Assembly (NCBI RefSeq): GCF_000002075.1
Contig: NW_004797538.1
Span: 692,299-756,298 of the forward strand
Direction of reading: 5' to 3'
DNA from: Aplysia californica
Lineage: Eukaryota
Length of the DNA stretch: 64,000 bases
Shown here: piece by piece, positions 13,614-51,889 of the stretch
How the letters are laid out: every line of letters begins with the position of its first letter
Numbering within the stretch: the stretch's first letter is position 1
Made by a program: the position numbers and the translations under genes
Notes under the pieces: model-generated
Databases searched by the model: none
The model's input: only the letters and a program-made list of their open reading frames with translations
What the model was told of the DNA's origin: nothing

Positions 13614-14189
13614 ATGTCTGACGCTCCCGCTGCTGCCCCAGCCAAGGCTACCCCCAAGAAGAAGGCTCCCGCCAAGCCTAAAGCCCCCGCAGCCCACCCT
13701 CAGTACAAGGTGATGGTCGCTGCCGCCATCTCTGCACTGAAGGAGCGCGGTGGCTCTTCCCGCCAGGCCATCCTGAAGTATATCATGGCCAACTTCAAGG
13801 TCGGAGATAACCCCACTGCCATCAACGCTCGTCTCAAGACTGCCCTCAGGGCCGGCGTCAAGTCTGGAACCCTGAAGCAAGCCAAGGGAACTGGCGCTGC
13901 TGGCTCTTTCCGTTTGGGAGAGAAGAAAGTAGAGAAAAAACCTGCTAAGAAAGTTGCCAAGAAACCCAAGTCTCCCAAGAAGGCAGCAAAGCCCAAGAAA
14001 GCCGCAGCCAAGAAACCAAAATCTCCCAAGAAGGCTGCCGCCAAGAAACCTGCTGCTAAAAAACCTGCTGCCAAGCCCAAGAAGGCCAAGAGCCCTGCCA
14101 AGAAAGCCGCCAAGCCCAAAACCGCTGCCAAAAAGCCAGCTGCCAAGAAGGCCGCTGCCAAGCCCAAGAAGGCCGCTGCCAAAAAGTAA
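13614..14189 (+). CDS. H1: Histone H1 (H1-delta/'orphon'-like linker histone), intronless, 191 aa
   Basis: Winged-helix globular domain [37 protein letters not shown]...[15 protein letters not shown] with K/A/P-rich tails containing KSPKK motifs. Confidence 0.98.
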
Positions 14190-23510: not shown

Positions 23511-23585
23511 CAATTTAATCATAGTGAATGAGAAAACTATTTCCATGAAATCAAAAATGTATATGTTTTTGTTTCCCTGCGCTAG

Positions 23586-24418
23586 GTTTGTGCCTGTGTA
23601 GTGACAGCTTTGTGCTGTGCCCTCCCGCCGCCCTGGATTGGAGTCGGCGGAAGAACTACGTGATGGAGGAGTTGCTTACATACGACCCTGACATCTTCTG
23701 TCTCGAGGAAGTGGATCATTTTGACTTCATCTCTCAATACCTCTCTCCGCTCGGATTCCAGGGTCTGTTCTGTCCCAAACCTGATTCCCCGTGTCTTTAC
23801 GAGGAGAACAACAGTGGCCCAGATGGCTGTGCTGTATTCTGGCGAAAATCGCACTTCTCTCTGACATCTTACGAGAATGTTGTCTTGCGAGATGACCGGG
23901 AAAAAGAAACCAACCAGGTGGCGCTGTTGTGCTGGCTTCGGGGTCTTTACGGTAGCTCCAAGGGCAAAGATATCCTGGTGGTTGCGACTCACTTAAAGTC
24001 AAAGAAAGGCTACTCAGAGCTGAGATATCAACAGGGCAAGTTTTTAGAGCGGGAGTTGATGAAGCAGGCACAGGGGAAGCCTGTTGTACTTTGTGGAGAC
24101 TTCAACGCCGAGCCGGAGGAGAAAGTAATTCAGGTGATTAAGTCCAGCAAGTTGCAGCTGATGAGCACCTACACACTGTTGTCTCCCAGCGGTGCGGAGC
24201 CCGAGTACACCACGTGGAAAGTGCGCAGCGGGAAGCACGGAGAGACGATGGAAGAGTCGTGCCACACGATAGACTACGTCTTTGTCACCAGGAACAACAG
24301 CAAGTGTGTGAAGCTCCTGCAGTTCCCTACGGGTGCGGAGCTGGGAGACGGTTTTTTGCCTTCGTTTTCCTACCCGTCGGACCACCTGTCACTGGTTGCG
24401 GACCTAGTTTTTACCTGA
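23586..24418 (+). CDS. NOCT: Nocturnin, coding exon 2 (346 aa spliced)
   Basis: Acceptor ctAG at 23584-85. Motifs SFVLCPPAALDW, PDIFCLEEVDHF, PKPDSPCLY..NNSGPDGCAVF, VATHLKSKKG, LCGDFNAEP, EPEYTTWKVR, HTIDYVF and YPSDHLSLVADL are diagnostic of nocturnin. Confidence 0.95.
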
Positions 24419-41403: not shown

Positions 41404-43719
41404 CACACACACTAAATGCATATCAGCCCGACAAATGAAGAGATGTTCTAACCACACATTCTTGTTTTGGCTTCAATAAAAACATGCAAGGCCATACCCA
41501 CACATGAAGGAAAATACTGTAAAACACAGATTGCTTCGATGAAAATGTCTCAATTTAAAAAAAAAAAAATCACCAATCCCATGTTTCCTACAATGGTCAG
41601 CATGTAATGGAAACAGTCACTCCCTTAAGCCGTCACTTTCTTTCCTTACACAAAAGCATATTTAAAAAAATGTACTCTCGCTGAAATGGAATTTAATGCT
41701 GATTTGAAGCTCTCCACAGAGACAAAGACCGTGAAGATGCGAGCGTCTTTGGCTTCTCTGAACTCATTATCTAGTCACCACATAATGAACGGCCAGTGTA
41801 AGATTCTGTCACATGTCACTTTTCAAAATGGTTCACGCCGCAGTCTTCTACAAAACTGCCGATAAGAGCTCCAGTGTGAATGTGAACAGAAGGACCATTA
41901 TGGTAGAAAGTCTGCGAACCTCCCCCTCTCTTCCCCCATATCATAGACAAGTGAACAAAAGAAGCCTGTCCCTGTTCCTCTCTGTAAGTCATGTGTGGAA
42001 AATCAGGGGGAGGGGAAGGCGCCAAATTAGGAAACGCGCAAGCAGTCAGTTTTAATGGGAGAAAACGCTTTGTTCAAACATTTTTATAGGTGAAAAATTA
42101 GAAGTCATTCTTCCATAATTAAAAATACTGTACCAAAGTGTACTTAACCCCCTTGTCAGATCTGTGAATTAAAAAAAAAAGATATTAAAATAAATAGAAG
42201 CATAATTAAGAACGTCGTTAGCGTAGCAAGGAAAGACAACGACAGATGTGCACAGTGGTCAAAGTGGCAAATAACGACAAACCTACTACCGTACCAGTGC
42301 AGATTTCTGCATAGAACCCAGACAAAAATGTGCAGCTCGGTGAAAAAGACGGGTAAAATAAAGCAGTACATCTAGTAGAGCCCCGAGAGTCGGGAAATAG
42401 GAAACATCAGCATAAACAATCAAAACACTTGTCATGGCAGAAAATTCCATCATATCAAGGTACAATGTACAAAATGAGAACAACCAAAAACAATTGCTAC
42501 AAAACGTAGCAACAGATCTGACATAATACGGTAAAAAAAAAAGAAAACTGCATAGACTTCTTCTCCATGAGAGTGAGGACTAGACTCGCGTCAGACAGGC
42601 ATCTACAGCTCCAGGACGGAGCTACACGGCAACAGAACACCAGAGAACACTTTCCTAGGAACAGACGACAGGGGAAAGAAAGTGAGGTGGTCTGGGGATT
42701 TCATCATCAAAAGTTCCATTCAACGTCAAGCTATTAAAAAATCTCAGGTATAACGAGAAATATCCTCATTGTCATTGAAAAAATGAGTAACTGCACCCGT
42801 TCTGACCCCACTTATTTAAAGTAGGGCGAGTTTGAAGAATATCGGAGTTACTCACTTTTTCTTTTTTCTTTTTCGACAGCGACGTTATGAAAGAGTATAC
42901 AGAGCTGCCATATCTAACAAATGATACATAGACATGAATGCATTAGAACTAGCGAAGACACACATTGAACAGGTCTGTACAAACTGACCAGCAAACAGTG
43001 GACCACAGTCAGTCGGGAACCCTCACACAGCTATTCCCCGCTCAAAGACGACTCATAGCCTCAAAGACTACATGTCAAAATATTCTATCTTCACAGAAAT
43101 TTGAAAAAAGACTGAAAAGCCCTTTCATCTTAAGCAATAGAGCTACCTGGAATGAAAGGTTTTTATTCCAATTGGGCATTTTCTGGTTCAATTTTGAATC
43201 TGAACTTACTTACAGGAAAATAAAAGAAGGATCATGCCAGTGGCAGAAAAAGTAATGGGTCAATTTCAAATGTAGAGAAAAGAGGACGTAAAACGCTAGC
43301 CTTCAAAGAAGAGCGAGGGAAGAGACCAGGATGAGACAGACAGATATTGGCCAAGTGCGGGTAACATTCACTTAACACAGTCAAGTATAACAGATATAGC
43401 AAAACATTGACACCTTCAGCCGTCCCCTTCTGGGACATACTCTACAAAGACTACAAAGGCAAGTCACTTGTGCTGCTTTCTACTCCATCCTCAATTCATT
43501 CCTTAAAGATGAATGAAAAGAAAATGTACACAGTTTAAGTTTAGATTTAGTAAAAGTTTCACGACACTTGCTACACAAATAGATCATGCAAGTGCTGAAG
43601 ATTAGCCTAGGGTGGCCAGACTGCATGACAATGGTCACATTTCCCCTGGAACTTTAATTTGAGTAAAGAGAAGCTCATCAGTGTTATAACAATCAATAAC
43701 AGCTTTGAAAAAAAACCCC

Positions 43720-43786
<67 letters not shown>

Positions 43787-44558
43787 AAGAATCAGGGGAA
43801 AGACAAGAAGTAGGACCCACCAGTAGCATCCTCCAACCACCCACTCATCAGTACAGACTAAAACGTAGCGACAGAGAACAGAAGTGGAAGAGACACTCTG
43901 AGACAGAACAACACGCCAGGGTTCTCACGACAATCTAACTCAGTGGTTGAAACACAAGGCGTCCACAGAGAAATACACACAGGATGGCCGGCCCACCCAA
44001 GCATGGCGTGAAGATAAAACTGCAAGATAGTCAAAAGTGTCATGGCAAACTCTCCAGTTGTTCCATCATCAAGCACATGTACAGTTTAGTTTCAGTAAAA
44101 GTTTTACGGCATTTGCAAAACAATAATGTCATATATAAGTGTCGAAGATCATAGGTGTTATAAGAGAGTAACAAACACAGAAAAGAAGTAGGAGAGATCA
44201 GGACGATAGATATTTGATAGGAAAAAAGGAGCAAACCACACTAGAGCACCCGCCAACCAACCTCATATATGTATAGTTATCGTGGTGAGCACAAAAAAAA
44301 AAGCCGAAGAGGCTCAATAAATAACGACATTAGCGACCCTAACCAAATTACCAAATTAGAAACACACAAGGGAAGACGGGGGGGGAATGAAAGAGAGAAT
44401 GAGAGCAGTACCGTCAAAGTACAGACGAACCTGCTCTGACTGCCACCTGTCCAAGACAACCACGCACAACCTGTACAAAGGACCTCTTCTCACTTCCCCC
44501 TTGCTCTTTTTCTACACCACAGCTACAGATATATATATATATAGATATAGATATAGAT

Positions 44559-44617
<59 letters not shown>

Positions 44618-47600
44618 TATAATATAATTGTTTAGCTCTCAAGTCCAGTATCAGCTCTTAGAAACTTTTTTACAGTTTGTTTTCAGTTAGAAAAGCAGAT
44701 CTATAGGGGGGGGGGTGGGAGTAGAATGAAATAAAATGTCACAGCTTTCTGATCCGTGCACTTTGAATTTAGGCCGAGAGAATGGGACAAACTTGTACAC
44801 AACTCAATACATTCACAATACGAGGTACACTTTCAGGTACAGGTACCCACAGGAACAGACAAAAGTTTTCCTGCCACTAAGACAAGTGGTTATCTAAAGG
44901 AACAGACTCACTTCTACTTCTACATCTACTATGCCCCACATCAAACAGAATACAGCGGAATGGATACAGAGATAAATTATGGCAAATCATAAAGAAATGA
45001 ACAAAACAACAAAGCAAATCATTGACCAGTTGGTCAGATGTACTAAGCCCAAAATTTTGATTAAAAAAAAAAAAAAATTGCATCAGCCCAAAATAAAAAA
45101 TTAAGGTCCTTTCTTTTTTCCCCAGTAAATTAACTCTTTATCTGTGTCGGCGACAGCGGCTTGGGCACATTCCTTTACGGCGACTTCGACATTAAATTAC
45201 ATTTCGGCAATTGCCGAAAACAGGTCTGTTTTACAGGAAGTTCATTCATTAGATGAAGGACTATCAAAATAGGTTTGCTAGTTTCGATTTAATGACGCTT
45301 TTGTCATTTTTAGATTTTCACCAAAAACAGGCCCTGGCATAGTGGATTTACCGCCCTCGGAGATAAAAGAGTTAATACGTGGTATTGGTTGCATGTGCTC
45401 CAAAAATATTTTGTCCGAATTAAAATTCCAAATGTGAAAAAAAAAGAAAAGTAACAAAAGACTCACGCTTCAAGAAAGAAGCAGCTTTTTCTCTCTCCTG
45501 ACACAATTGTGCTCTGTGAGCTCAGTACACTTGACTAGCTCGCTGACAAAGTTTGACCGTCAGACGTCTCCACGGCCGGCCCAGGACTGGGATTGTCCTA
45601 CACACCAGCACCCAACAAGACCTGTGTTCTGAGAACATACTGGAACAACCAGACATCAATTATATATATATATATGTATAAATATTATATACACAATACA
45701 GTCTAGCACGCACATAGTGAACACCGTGTTAGCGAAAAAAACGCATATAACCAACAGATTTTCAAATCCAGAATTGTTTCTCACACATGTGTATACATAT
45801 AGGCCTAATTCGTACATAGTTAACAGACTTCTGTATCCCACCGATTTCACTATGTTGGTACTAGACTGTACAGTTAAATGCACCTCTTGAAGTCAGTTCT
45901 GTAAAAGATATTCATTTCTGAACAGAAAAAACAAAACAAAAAAATCCTCAGCATCTAACCTTCTGCATTCTCAAGACTAAATTACTAAACAAAAAAAACA
46001 ACAAACAAACAAAAAAAACCCTGATGAAAAACACCCAAACCATTGGGCAATATACATTTTATCATGTCTGTACCAGTCTTCCTCATTTTAGGCACATCTG
46101 CTTTTCTAAAACAAAGCAAAATATGGGTAGTTCAAACGCAATATAAAGAGTACCCCCAGTCACAGCCTTGTGATAGCAACGACATCACGAGAAACCAGCC
46201 ACTAAAATATCGGGAGAACTCAAAAGGTAAAAACATCCATCAGATCTCATCTCGCTGCTCACATCTCTGAGCACAACACAAGTTTACCAGTATAGGACCC
46301 CAGCCTCCACCCACTCATTCAAAGCTTTGACAGGTGTACACAATCTCAGGCATCCTGCACACTCCCATCTGAACACGCTCACTTACTAAACAGCCAGGTA
46401 CAAGGCGCACCACACAGTAACAAATATAAGCCCACACATTACTCACTTTCTCACTTACAAAAGGTCTAAACAACCTGAGACGTGCAAGTTATAATGAAAC
46501 TTTTCGTCCAGAATATACCATCAACACTTAGGCAGACAGTCAAAAAACCCAAATGCGTGGCCACAGAATGAAAATAAGAGACACAACATATCAAATTCAG
46601 ATAGTCGAACAAAATCAATCTGCTTGAAAATAAAAAAGATGCACTTTTGTACAGAATCGCGTACACCTTTTTCCTTGTCAAAGACTAGACAGACACAATG
46701 AGAGGACTGCAAACAGTGACGACTGCTAGTACATGTATGTTTATCAGTCTGTTCGCTGCTCAACTTCCTCCTTCTGGCCAAATGTCAGGGAAGTAGAATG
46801 TGATGAAGATTGAGCAAAGAGAAGCATATTGAATTGACACAATAACAGAAAGGGGAAAAGAGACAGAGAGAAACAACAGAGTGGAAAGAAATGAAGTAGG
46901 ACCTCTATCAGTGGCGTCCTCCAATCATCCACACAGTAGAATGTGTCATTTAGTTTTAGTTTCAGATAGAGTTTTATGGCACTCGCAACTGCATAAGGTC
47001 ATATGAGCGCCAGAAGATTAGAGGTGTTACAGGAGAGTAACAAATATAAAAAAGAAGAAGGGGAGATAAGGACGATAGATGTTTGATAGGAAAGAAGGAG
47101 CAACTGACGAGGACAGTTTCATGGTACAAGCTACAGACAAAATACAAACTAGAATCTACGTTAGCCTTTCTTTTGTGTGTTTGAGTAAAGAGAAGAACAC
47201 ATGAACACAACAATGGCCAATTAGTGCTGGGAAAGTGGAAAGGAAAAGGTAAGACAGGCAACCAGAAATAACCATAGGGGGGGGAAGAAAAGAGGTCGGA
47301 CATACTAGCAGCACCCTCCAACAGCCTTGCCTGCCACATCATCTGTTTAGAATGGAGACGACAGGACACAAGCTAAACACAGCTGTATAATTCATCAAAG
47401 AGAATACCAGAAAAAAAAGTTGTATAAAATACAGATCAGGATGAGAAGATAAAGAACAAAGAGTAAATGCAAAGGCAAAAAAAATATTTAAAAAGTTAAC
47501 TGTTGAAACTACTGAACCAGTTCTCAGATCTGAAGACCGTACTTTTTACCATAAAATACACATTGGGACATACAAAAATAATGAACACTGCACTGAGTAA

Positions 47601-47837
47601 ATGCAAAGAAAAAAAAAAAGGTAACTGTTGAAACAATAAAAAACAGTTCTCAGATCTGAAAGGAATACTCTCTCACATAAAATACAGATCAGCGGTACAG
47701 CCACCTCAGGCCAGTTTACAATGGAAATAAAAACAACAACATCAAAAGGCAAAACCAAATGTCCAGGTGGAGTGAAGATAGAGAAACAAACTTGCATTTT
47801 TCATCTGTAGGTAAGCTACAAACACCAACCAATGTGT

Positions 47838-47889
<52 letters not shown>

Positions 47890-49413
47890 TTTGGAATGTG
47901 TACAACTTACATAGAATCAAGACCGGAGGGTTTCTTTGCACATCATCACAGCCTGACACAACATCATCCTAACCAGACTGGATCATCATCAAAACTCCAC
48001 AGACTCTCAACCACACTTGCACACATCCATCACATCTGCCATCAGTAGACGCACATAGCAGAATAAGTTATAGTCGCAGTCTATGCCTTAGCAAAAACAG
48101 CTTTTCACATCTCTGACATGCCTTACCAGAATGTCTCTTTACCCCCCCCCCCTGCCCCTTCCAACTCCCTCCAAACTCAATTTTAAAAAGATGAACAGAA
48201 CAAGCAAAACAACACCTAAAAGTAAAAAAAAATCAGTGTCATCCTAATTTCAGATTTTTAAAACTTTCTGGTCAGGATATGGGCTTCATAAAAAAAAGAA
48301 ACGTTCATCCAGAAATTTCAGGAAGTAGGAAAATTACCTCATAACAAATTCACAGCCCAAGACGCACTCTTTTAAAAAAATTTTTTTTTAGCAGAGGGTT
48401 TTACGGCGCTCGCAACTGCACAAGGTCATATGAGTGCCAAGGGGTGGGTGTCAACAGAGAAATCCTTACACGAAATCAGACTTACTCTGCTCACCTCTCT
48501 AGATTCAACAGCACAAAGTCTGCTTCGACTATCAAGAGACACACACTCGCTTCAGTCACTTCTTCCAATATCATAGCACAGGGCACCAGGTCAGTGATGG
48601 AACAACAACCCTGCACCACCAATACGACACACGTACACAGTCTACCACGGCGCTAACACACAAACTACACACTTAGAGCTGGAACACACCTCATGTACAG
48701 CTCTTAACACACCAGTGCATGGCTCTACAAACACAGGTACAATGCCTTCTAACAAACTAGGACACACACCATGGAAGCATCTAGGTGAGAATCTGTCTCT
48801 AAAACCTTTCTAAACACTTGAGTAGCTACATGGGGGGGGGGGGGGGGGGGGGGGACGACCCTTCACATTGGAACCTTCCCTAAGTTTTCTCTCAGACAGT
48901 CTGTATTAAGTTTTCTCTCAGACTGTCTGTATCCTACAACAGTTCCTCAGCAATTTGATTAGCAACCAAAACAAAGCCATCTTTTATACAACCTGATTAA
49001 TTGTGGACGGTCTGAAATAGACAAAGTCACATTCTAAGTTTCCAATTTCATTTTTGCAACCGTTAACTTCTGTGTAACAACTTTCTCAGAGCCTCTTGAA
49101 AGTTTTAACTCTGAAAATTACGGTGCAGTACCACTGCAAGATATAGCCCTCTAGGATTTTGTAGTTATTGGACTCAAAGTTTGTCATTTTTTTTCTTCTC
49201 TTCCTCATCCCCATTGTGGAAAAGTCTTCCCTGAAAAACGGGAAATCACTCAAAAAAATTCTCGCACCGCCTCTCACACAGCACCCCCTCCGAGGACAAA
49301 AGCTACCCATGAAGCAACCACAAACTAACAACCCACAGGGACACCCTTCCACCCTCCCGCAACGTTCCACACAGAGTTCTGGAGGTAGCCTCGATTGCCC
49401 ACCAACGCGTCCG

Positions 49414-49515
49414 TCAAACAGCGAGGTCAGCGGTAGGTGAGAGTTGGACATCTCGTGCCCAGTCACGCTGGAGGTAAAAACACCATGATTGAGGTACGGC
49501 AGACAGCCAGCCAAG
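49414..49515 (-). CDS. Candidate distal alternative last exon of the minus-strand gene (phase 0 gives LGWLSAVPQSWCFYLQRDWARDVQLSPTADLAV*)
   Basis: Strong acceptor gttcttgttgttgctgttgttgcAG at 49517-49516. Reading frame is inferred from the phase-0 donor at 56209; it could instead be a UTR exon. Confidence 0.35.
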   Translation of the reverse strand, partial: LGWLSAVPQSWCFYLQRDWARDVQLSPTADLAV

Positions 49516-50224
49516 CTGCAACAACAGCAACAACAAGAACAACATATGCTCAGCCTGAAAATGTCACAGCCAATCTCGTAATAACCAAAGAATGAGCAAA
49601 CGTATTATGCAGGCACATATACATATTTATATGCAAGTGCGCACATACGTAATCCAACATGAGCACCGAGCTTATACGGTGTCTACATCAACATTTGTGA
49701 GGTGAAAACAGCTGCTGCAGCACAATTATAGAACTGATCCTTTCTCAGAATTCGATAGAAGGCCACACAGCCCTTTCCTTCACCGCACTCTTCCTCAGCA
49801 TCCCGAAGAGCTGCCTTTGTCTTACTCTCAAACAGGAAGACAAAATACACACAGGAAGCGGAGACTCAAAGGAGGCCAAACCCTCATTCCCTCATGAATT
49901 CAAAGTAGGTGGAGGAGCATTAAAAGCCCTTATTCTTCACACTTGAACAGAAAGCCCCCTCTCCCACTTTGAACGGACAAACCAAATCTTTCCTCTCCTC
50001 CATATTGCACAAAAATCTCTTGCTCAAACCCTGCTGCCTGCCCCTTCCACATCGGGTCAACAATCCTGCCTGCAACAGACGAGCCACCCCTCCCAAATCA
50101 GATTGGCGACACCTCTCAAACAAATCTTCCCACGTCCGACCAAAGGCTTGACACCTCAAATAAGACCAAAGACTTCCTAAATCATACCAGGGATCATATT
50201 GGAGACTCGGAGACTCCTCCCACA

Positions 50225-50520
50225 TCATATCGGAGATTTCTCCCACATCATACAAGAGACTCCTTCCATATCATATAAGAGACTCCTCCCACATCATATA
50301 AGAGACTCCTCCCACATCATATAAGAGACTCCTCCCACATCATATAAGAGACTCCTCCCATATCATATAAGAGACTCCTCCCACATCATATAAGAGACTC
50401 CTCCCACATCATACAAGAGACTCTTCCCACATCATATAAGAGACTCCTTCCACATCATATAAGAGACTCCTCCCCCATCATATAAGAGACTCCTCCTACA
50501 TCATACAAGAGACTCCTCCC
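50225..50520 (-). repeat. 23-bp tandem array (13 units) derived from the terminal codons and stop of the 51718-50501 exon
   Basis: Unit TCATA(T/C)AAGAGACTCCTCCCACA starting at 50225, 50248, ... 50478, 50501. Confidence 0.95.
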
Positions 50521-51718
50521 CTTCCTCCCAATCATCATCCGTGTCCTCATTGAAACAAAGCGGTTTCTTGTCTCCAGCCCCGCGATGTCGCGTCAGAGAC
50601 GAGGCGCCGACGGCTTTGTGCTGAGCACCGTGGCTCTGGCCGGGCGACTGTGGCTGGGGTCTGTGCTGGGGGGACGGCTGATGTCGATGAGCGTACGGCT
50701 GGGCGGGGTGGGGAGTGGGTTGGGAGTGGTACAGCTGTGCAGGAGGGGCTTTCACAGGAGTGGAGGGGTAGGAAGAGGAGGAGGAGGGGGAGGAGTGTAG
50801 CCGGTCCATGGCACTCTGGTTCTGCCTGGCCATCTCAGTCTGCACGTACAGCAACAGCTTTTCTTTCAAATCCAAGGCGGAGGTGGACTCCTTGGCCTTC
50901 TCTTGTTGACCCAACGGGAACAAGCCGAGACTTGCCAGGTCGAGGTCAAGGTCTCGCTGTGAGAACGCCAAAGTCTGAGGGGGGGCAGCTGCTGAGGTCC
51001 GGGGAATGCCGTGGCTGCTGCTGCTGCTATTCAGGGAGGACTGTTGTTGATGCTGCTGCTGTTGCCTCTGGTGCTGCTGCAGCATCTGCTGGTGGTGGTA
51101 CTGGTGCTGCTGGAGCTGATGCAGCTGGTGAATCTCTTCCAGGGAGTGCTGCTGGTACGGACTGGGCTGTGAGGACTGAGGAGGGAGGCGTGGGGCGACC
51201 GTCGTCACAGACGCCATAGTCAACTGTGAGTTCTGTCGGCCATGGGGAGGGGTGAGCCGCAACTGCTGCTGCTGCTGTAGCTGCCATCTCATCTGCTGCT
51301 GTTGCTGAAACTGCTGCTGCTGAATGCAGTCGCTGTTCACTCGCCAGCTGAGCTCTCCCTCTGTGGTCGCGGGCTGGTCTAGTCTGTTGGGCAAAGACTT
51401 GTGTCGGAGGATCGGGCTGATGCGCTGGTGGGCAGGGAGGGTTGGGGCCGCGAGCCCGTCGCTGCTCAGGGTGACCTCTGCCAGGTCGGAGCTTGGGGAA
51501 CTGTCCAGACTGGGGAACACCAGGCTGTCCTGGCTGAGGGAGATGTGTGGCTGGGGCAGCAGTGGCTGCTGGGCGGAATGCTGCTGCTGCTGTTGTTGTT
51601 GTTGCTGTTGTTGGCTGATGATGGTGGTGGTGGTGGTGATGGATGGAGGAGTAAAGGGCTGGCCATCTGCCTCTGATCTCTCACTACGACCGTTGGTGAA
51701 ACGAACTCGCTTCTCGTA
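50501..51718 (-). CDS. Large terminal coding exon (405 aa, Q/H/P/S-rich, ends EEGEESLV*) of an unidentified gene whose 5' part lies beyond the window
   Basis: Acceptor cctctgtccccAG at 51720-51719. Open frame from YEKRVRFTNGRS... through ...LKEKLLLYVQTEMAR... to DDDWEEGEESLV*, GC-rich coding-like composition, class I PDZ-ligand C-terminus. Confidence 0.75.
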   Translation of the reverse strand, partial: YEKRVRFTNGRSERSEADGQPFTPPSITTTTTIISQQQQQQQQQQQHSAQQPLLPQPHISLSQDSLVFPSLDSSPSSDLAEVTLSSDGLAAPTLPAHQRISPILRHKSLPNRLDQPATTEGELSWRVNSDCIQQQQFQQQQQMRWQLQQQQQLRLTPPHGRQNSQLTMASVTTVAPRLPPQSSQPSPYQQHSLEEIHQLHQLQQHQYHHQQMLQQHQRQQQQHQQQSSLNSSSSSHGIPRTSAAAPPQTLAFSQRDLDLDLASLGLFPLGQQEKAKESTSALDLKEKLLLYVQTEMARQNQSAMDRLHSSPSSSSSYPSTPVKAPPAQLYHSQPTPHPAQPYAHRHQPSPQHRPQPQSPGQSHGAQHKAVGASSLTRHRGAGDKKPLCFNEDTDDDWEEGEESLV

Positions 51719-51889
51719 CTGGGGACAGAGGAAGCAGGAATCATTTCAGAGATTCAAACGTCCGGCACAATACAGACATACACTCCAAGAAAAATCTAGC
51801 TGAACAACAGGCTTTATGTTATTTTGACGCCCACTGGCATCAAAGTCAGTAAAAGCACACGCTCTTTATAATAACATGCCACAACTTAA

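Follow-up and report, generated by a model that had tools for sequence, protein, structure and literature searches.

Minisatellites have repeat units of roughly 10-60 bp. Tandem repeats in general cover 4.3% of eukaryotic genomes on average and are depleted near stop codons (PMC12418385), and the closest described relatives of the locus reported here are the minisatellites and VNTRs found at the 3′ ends of genes, such as the VNTR in CEL exon 11, in which single-base deletions are pathogenic. The present array, found in a 64,000-nucleotide window of the Aplysia californica genome (contig NW_004797538.1, positions 692,299 to 756,298 of the forward strand), resembles these in its variant head-to-tail copies, its decayed end and its contact with a last exon. 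It differs from the CEL VNTR in that the Aplysia unit itself contains the stop codon and, as its length is also not a multiple of three, only one copy can be coding.

Two further systems invite comparison. Genes with programmed read-through (the Drosophila SCR genes, AQP4x and OPRL1) share with the locus a UGA stop, a predicted structure downstream and a short extension that ends in a motif, but the Aplysia stop lacks the UGA-C context and its extension is explained by repeat arithmetic. The reservoirs of silent cassettes exemplified by Borrelia vls share the layout of one expressed copy beside silent near-copies, whereas the proteins encoded by the Aplysia copies hardly vary, with V or I at a single position. 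The motif at issue is the class I PDZ ligand, with the consensus X-(S/T)-X-(V/I/L), of which mammalian examples are the ESDV end of NR2A/B and the ESLV end of PTP gamma/zeta (PMC1978516); Nav1.4 also ends in ESLV (PMC6259924). A literature search at the level of titles and abstracts returned no published minisatellite with a unit made up of a PDZ tail and its stop, which is weak evidence of absence.

The 23-bp array and its extent

The array occupies positions 50210-50520 of the window (23-bp unit, 13.5 copies, 91% matches and 0 indels by TRF) and is a real minisatellite, with head-to-tail copies and a unit size within the minisatellite range. Direct observation covers the array and its unit, the decayed sequence at its 3′ end, and the overlap with the terminal codons of a frame that has a strong coding signature. 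The features at this end of the gene are as follows.

50501..51718, minus strand: predicted terminal coding exon B, Gln/His/Pro/Ser-rich, 405 codons plus stop, ending EESLV* (frame asymmetry, codon bias, acceptor)
50499..50530, minus strand: coding copy of the repeat, 32 nt, from the Trp codon to 2 bases past the stop (stop at 50503-50501)
50246..50498, minus strand: 11 untranslated copies of 23 bp, all intact and reading (E/K)ESL(I/V)* in their respective frames, with 0-3 differences from the consensus
50190..50245, minus strand: degenerate copy 13 (4 differences) and rearranged copy 14, then a 12-nt Ser-Leu-Val-stop relic at 50193
50050..50190, minus strand: decayed tail of older copies, with moderate support from tile scores against shuffles

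On the minus strand, 50522-50224 holds 13 full units, namely one coding, 11 intact untranslated and one degenerate. The first-pass annotation had the PDZ-ligand codons and stop amplified 13 times into the 3′ UTR; the array is as described there, with 12 rather than 13 extra copies behind the stop. It had also begun the array at 50520, while the coding copy reaches further upstream, its first codon being the Trp at 50530; a 9-nt duplication that keeps the frame brings this copy to 32 nt. The reading of all units but the last as (E/K)(E/K)SL(I/V)* agrees with the 11 intact copies, in which the second position is E throughout (11/11) and the last residue is I in nine and V in two.

Beyond the intact copies the repeat grades into decayed sequence. 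The 50-nt tiles starting at 50200, 50175, 50150, 50125 and 50100 score 33, 27, 20, 37 and 28 against the unit, and the same or a higher score is reached in 0, 12, 79, 0 and 3 per 1000 shuffles, respectively; none of 1259 background tiles scores 31 or more. The nhmmer signal in this tail is weak (E=3.5, at 50115-50089 only). The relic at 50182-50193 on the minus strand encodes Ser-Leu-Val-stop and matches the coding copy except for synonymous changes at two third positions, where it carries the Ser codon commonest in exon B and a Leu codon with one of the two highest counts there. All 12 matches to a 20-nt core of the unit at up to 3 mismatches fall within the array (no shuffle of 100 reaches 12 matches; shuffle mean 0.00), and neither core matching nor tile scoring found the unit at any other place in the 64-kb window. 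An array carried by a transposon was considered and rejected, as none of the 11 inverted pairs in 49000-52500 brackets its ends. A small non-autonomous element lies nearby at 51885-52448, with perfect 16-nt terminal inverted repeats that begin TTAACCC, which we take to be piggyBac-like ends, and encloses a 43-bp minisatellite of its own at 52160-52433.

Coding status of exon B

The frame from 51718 to 50501 ends in EESLV* as first annotated and appears to be translated, judging from its coding signature and from predicted proteins in the databases. It runs for 414 codons without a stop, against 8-12 stops in each of the other five frames, and a stop-free run of 400 codons arises in 0 of 1000 shuffles. 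GC3 is 0.72, beside 0.67 and 0.63 for the nocturnin-like and linker histone H1 frames in the same window, and Gln is encoded by CAG 59 times and by CAA 13 times. The acceptor at 51718 is good and the best-scoring of the sites checked, and no splice donor scoring at least 2.5 was found within the exon.

A RefSeq protein of 349 aa (XP_035826330.1) and an older record of 409 aa match exon B at 99%, and both end in EESLV. The two models differ in their first exon, with six codons at 52498 in one and four codons at 54063 in the other, each with a GT donor directly after it; the discordant starts look as if a gene predictor had furnished an orphan last exon with a first one. The protein name given to XP_035826330.1, 'putative cyclin-dependent kinase DDB_G0272797', has no kinase domain behind it in a Pfam search of exon B, in which no family reaches E<=0.1. 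The record probably covers no more than the final exon of a larger gene whose two endings are of PDZ type, and its annotation would merit correction, Aplysia being a model animal in synaptic research.

No orthologue of exon B was found in protein, profile or ESM Atlas searches. Phmmer against 1.84 billion representatives returned one match, the same Aplysia protein, which was also the single match among 8000 proteins of 222-709 aa scored against the whole exon; residues 240-405 gave 0 matches among 853 candidates of 710-2025 aa. The PDB search returned two chance Gln/His matches only, the best ESM Atlas score was 0.79 with no usable match afterwards, and exact look-up of eight frames from the window (one begun one codon late) found none. 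A literature search returned no mention of the exon peptide motifs or of XP_035826330.1. Downstream, AATAAA is absent for 7.3 kb past the stop (43167-50500, minus strand) and only variant poly(A) hexamers occur, the first at 49934, so that either the 3′ UTR is long or a non-canonical polyadenylation signal is used.

PDZ-type endings and a candidate sister exon

The last four residues of exon B, ESLV, fit the class I consensus, and the first-pass description of this end as a class I PDZ ligand agrees with the motif as given in PMC1978516. A second frame on the same strand, 9.5 kb upstream, ends in ESDV*, and the candidate exons that could join the two endings are as follows.

62690..62713, minus strand: candidate exon of 24 nt that would keep the frame, located upstream of either ending
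60002..60534, minus strand: candidate alternative terminal exon A, His/Gln-rich, ending ESDV* (223-codon stop-free frame; AG-free zone)
56210..56253, minus strand: candidate exon of 44 nt that would be spliced to exon B (entry in phase 1, exit in phase 0)

Each candidate begins behind a long AG-free zone. On the minus strand the longest such zone (233 nt) ends at 56253 and the third longest (179 nt, 84% pyrimidine) at 62713, and the acceptor of exon A closes the fourth longest (160 nt) among 4089 minus-strand AGs. The 24-nt candidate is followed by a GTAAGT donor; the 44-nt candidate has a donor score of 7.9 and a poor near acceptor (-2.3). The phases are compatible, with phase 1 leading from the 24-nt candidate into the exon at 60534, whose length fits such an entry, or into that at 56253, and phase 0 then into 51718. 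In human genes long AG-free zones mark exons with distant branch points, which are often alternative (PMC1431707), and the three candidates here likewise stand behind zones of 160-233 nt, although those data are human and the Aplysia exons are predicted only. The exons at 62713, 60534 and 56253 were first picked by eye, partly from their pyrimidine tracts, so the ranking of AG-free zones is not fully independent, and it is this ranking that supports them, the candidate micro-exons not having been recovered in strict and then relaxed splice-site scans.

Among the N-free frames of at least 150 codons, two of 16 end in E-S-x-V. A background set of 4983 stop-ended segments contains this pattern 3 times and the wider pattern [ED][ST]x[VIL] 10 times. 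By our own arithmetic such an ending would arise by chance in one of the remaining 15 long frames with a probability of about 1-3%. The model suggests that exons A and B could be alternative last exons of one larger gene that begins upstream of the window. Their last four residues are identical to those of NR2A/B (ESDV) and of Nav1.4 and PTP gamma/zeta (ESLV), while homology between these proteins and the Aplysia exons was not found, and the Aplysia ligands are putative. Exon A had no match among 8000 scored proteins of 392-2000 aa, and its Pfam search gave only DUF7380, below threshold. Two candidates for the host gene were rejected: CaV2, an idea that came from a DDDW stretch, as the tail of ApCaV2 differs and ends in DDWC (PMC10657410) and five motifs of exons A and B have no match in the supplement of that paper; and molluscan Nav1, as that protein ends in SGVVA (PMC6259924).

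Origin of the array

The account that fits best, and that we consider moderately probable, is an ordinary locus-specific minisatellite that arose neutrally, by slippage, at the end of a real coding exon and is anchored on a real PDZ-type tail; it corresponds to the last alternative offered in the first-pass annotation. Selection would keep the PDZ-type end of class I. The segment first duplicated would have been 23 nt long, running from the Trp codon to a point just beyond the stop; near-identical GAT/ATGAT runs on both sides would have helped its duplication, and expansion would have followed. Only the 5′-most copy would be translated, the remainder serving as 3′ UTR, where copies would drift freely and be periodically homogenised while the older ones decay at the far end. 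An ESLI ending after read-through or a late deletion would be a by-product of a unit length that is not a multiple of three.

Several observations speak for neutrality. Nine of the 11 intact copies carry I rather than the V of the coding copy. TRF arrays cover 6.1% of the window (3.3% for periods of at least 10 and at least three copies) and, minisatellites being common in it, some stop codons must fall inside one. A loose class I pattern is fitted by 234 of 4983 random window ends, and from this frequency together with the array cover several such coincidences would be expected per genome. Against a neutral origin count the reported depletion of tandem repeats near stop codons (PMC12418385) and the fold of the array RNA, which is more stable than that of most column-permuted arrays. 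If neutral, the locus is a tidy case in which a C-terminus under selection anchors a minisatellite.

A different history, possible but unlikely, is that the tail came from the repeat: the frame, having lost an earlier stop, would have run on into an older minisatellite in the 3′ UTR, and ESL(V/I)* would thereby have become the C-terminus. The last three sense codons are rare further upstream in exon B (Ser 4/52, Leu 2/39, Val 0/9), the old decayed copies downstream point to a repeat long resident here, and unit-like sequence continues for some 30 nt more within the coding frame, over acidic codons (scores matched in 19/2000 shuffles and 3/1660 window tiles). Asp and Glu codons, however, resemble the unit anyway, and codon bias weakens before the repeat starts, with GC3 already at 0.52 over the last 27 codons. 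The unit has no second copy elsewhere in the window, and a random repeat seldom gives E-S-x-V (the 3 of 4983 segments noted above), yet the sister frame ends in ESDV*. This sister ending suggests that the tail itself matters and thus favours seeding of the repeat by the tail over donation of the tail by the repeat. Both directions had been proposed in the first-pass annotation, and seeding is the likelier of the two. The relic might be brought in on the same side: its synonymous differences lean towards codons preferred in exon B, as expected if the coding copy had changed silently and re-seeded the array, but the argument is weak and post hoc, at a chance level of about 0.08 by our own arithmetic.

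It is improbable that the array is a functional 3′ UTR RNA element, in which a G·U-rich hairpin would act on stability, localisation or translation independently of coding potential. The consensus unit is predicted to form a G·U-rich stem of 9 bp with a 4-nt loop (-7.7 kcal/mol), and the full fold is available to seven of the 13 units. For copies 2-12 together the predicted fold has -104.8 kcal/mol as mRNA and -25.0 on the other strand, and column-permuted arrays average -68.1 kcal/mol, with nine of 300 as stable as the real array; a z of -7.9 obtained from plain shuffles was set aside as inflated, because such shuffling destroys the tandem structure. This predicted stability stands against the loss of the hairpin in three of the 11 intact copies (-1.3, -1.9 and -3.0 kcal/mol), the ease with which G/U-rich units pair, and the Rfam search, which found no family in the window at gathering score. 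Expansion driven by a hairpin in the DNA was rejected, 53 of 150 permuted arrays folding equally well under DNA parameters.

Still more doubtful is the view that the frame is not translated to its EESLV stop or that the array is an assembly artefact. It could draw on the disagreement of the database models over a first exon of only 4-6 upstream codons, on the failure of the searches run with exon B to return relatives, a Pfam family or a PDB match, on the missing AATAAA, and on the probable origin of the database proteins in the same assembly. Against it, the gaps of N that were seen lie near 29 and 31 kb of the window, and the array, with its distinct variants and its gradual passage into decayed sequence, does not look like the product of an assembly that collapsed or stuttered. 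The codon bias and frame asymmetry of exon B and its lack of an internal donor scoring at least 2.5 argue likewise; non-translation had been named as a refuting condition, and exon B has a strong coding signature and matches predicted proteins.

Proposed use of the extra copies as a backup of the PDZ tail

The proposal that the array is a selected reservoir or backup, whose copies would be used in read-through, late frameshift or unequal crossover to keep or vary the PDZ tail, gained no support from arithmetic, codon, frameshift or stop-context tests, and we regard it as very improbable. Its factual premises are correct as first described: read-through of the stop regains a class I ligand through a 22-residue extension ending KESLI, and a shifted frame ends in GEESLI. 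However, when random gene ends were amplified as a 23-nt unit, 2595 of 5000 regained the same last four residues after a read-through of 22 codons, so the regenerated ligand follows from 3x23 alone and is no evidence of design. Single-base deletions in exon B are rescued with an EESLI ending in 92 of 1215 cases, whereas a class I ending results from none of the 1215 insertions: in this third frame copy 2 replaces the Trp codon with a stop. Among the distinct variants of copies 2-12, five of six keep the motif in their own frame, with 67-70% expected by chance (P=0.35-0.41); the copies are thus under no detectable codon-level constraint, at the low power that six variants afford. Unequal crossover could exchange V for I as had been suggested, but this is the only swap that the intact copies offer, since they vary only by V/I and by one E/K upstream. 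A ribosome can reach at most three copies, which leaves ten superfluous as backup.

Read-through itself is a related matter. The stop context of exon B is UGA-U-G and not the UGA-C with A at +5 that characterises leaky Drosophila stops (10.64898/2026.06.10.731275). The predicted stem starts 3 to 12 nt past the stop, depending on where the fold begins, and Drosophila genes with read-through are enriched for structures close to the stop (10.64898/2026.06.10.731275), so that stimulated read-through keeps a small chance; PDZ motifs are also predicted in some validated read-through extensions (PMC4999894). The duplicated stop region might then act as a recoding cassette, in which the G·U hairpin would stimulate read-through, 3x23 would restore the frame, and a longer isoform (ESLI) would end 23 residues further out. 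We rate this as a long shot. It would give a third ending to a gene with ESDV, ESLV and ESLI tails, tunable by repeat variants, and would provide a route to read-through isoforms that keep their C-terminal motif from day one. More generally, if the extra copies were used, the locus would show that a read-through isoform with its short linear motif retained can arise by duplication of the region around a stop.

Other features of the window

Three further coding-type frames were recorded on the plus strand. A hydrophobic 280-codon frame at 5331-6173, apparently a multi-pass membrane protein, has no Pfam family at E<=0.1. The frame at 13614-14189 is a single-exon linker histone H1 (PF00538, E 6.5e-29), and that at 23549-24418 belongs to the exo/endo/phosphatase family (PF03372, E 9e-18) and is presumably a nocturnin exon. 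Other minisatellites lie at 35146-35836 (period 42), 36847-37246 (period 37), 54155-54363 (period 113) and 61483-61612 (period 31), and such arrays are therefore common in the region.
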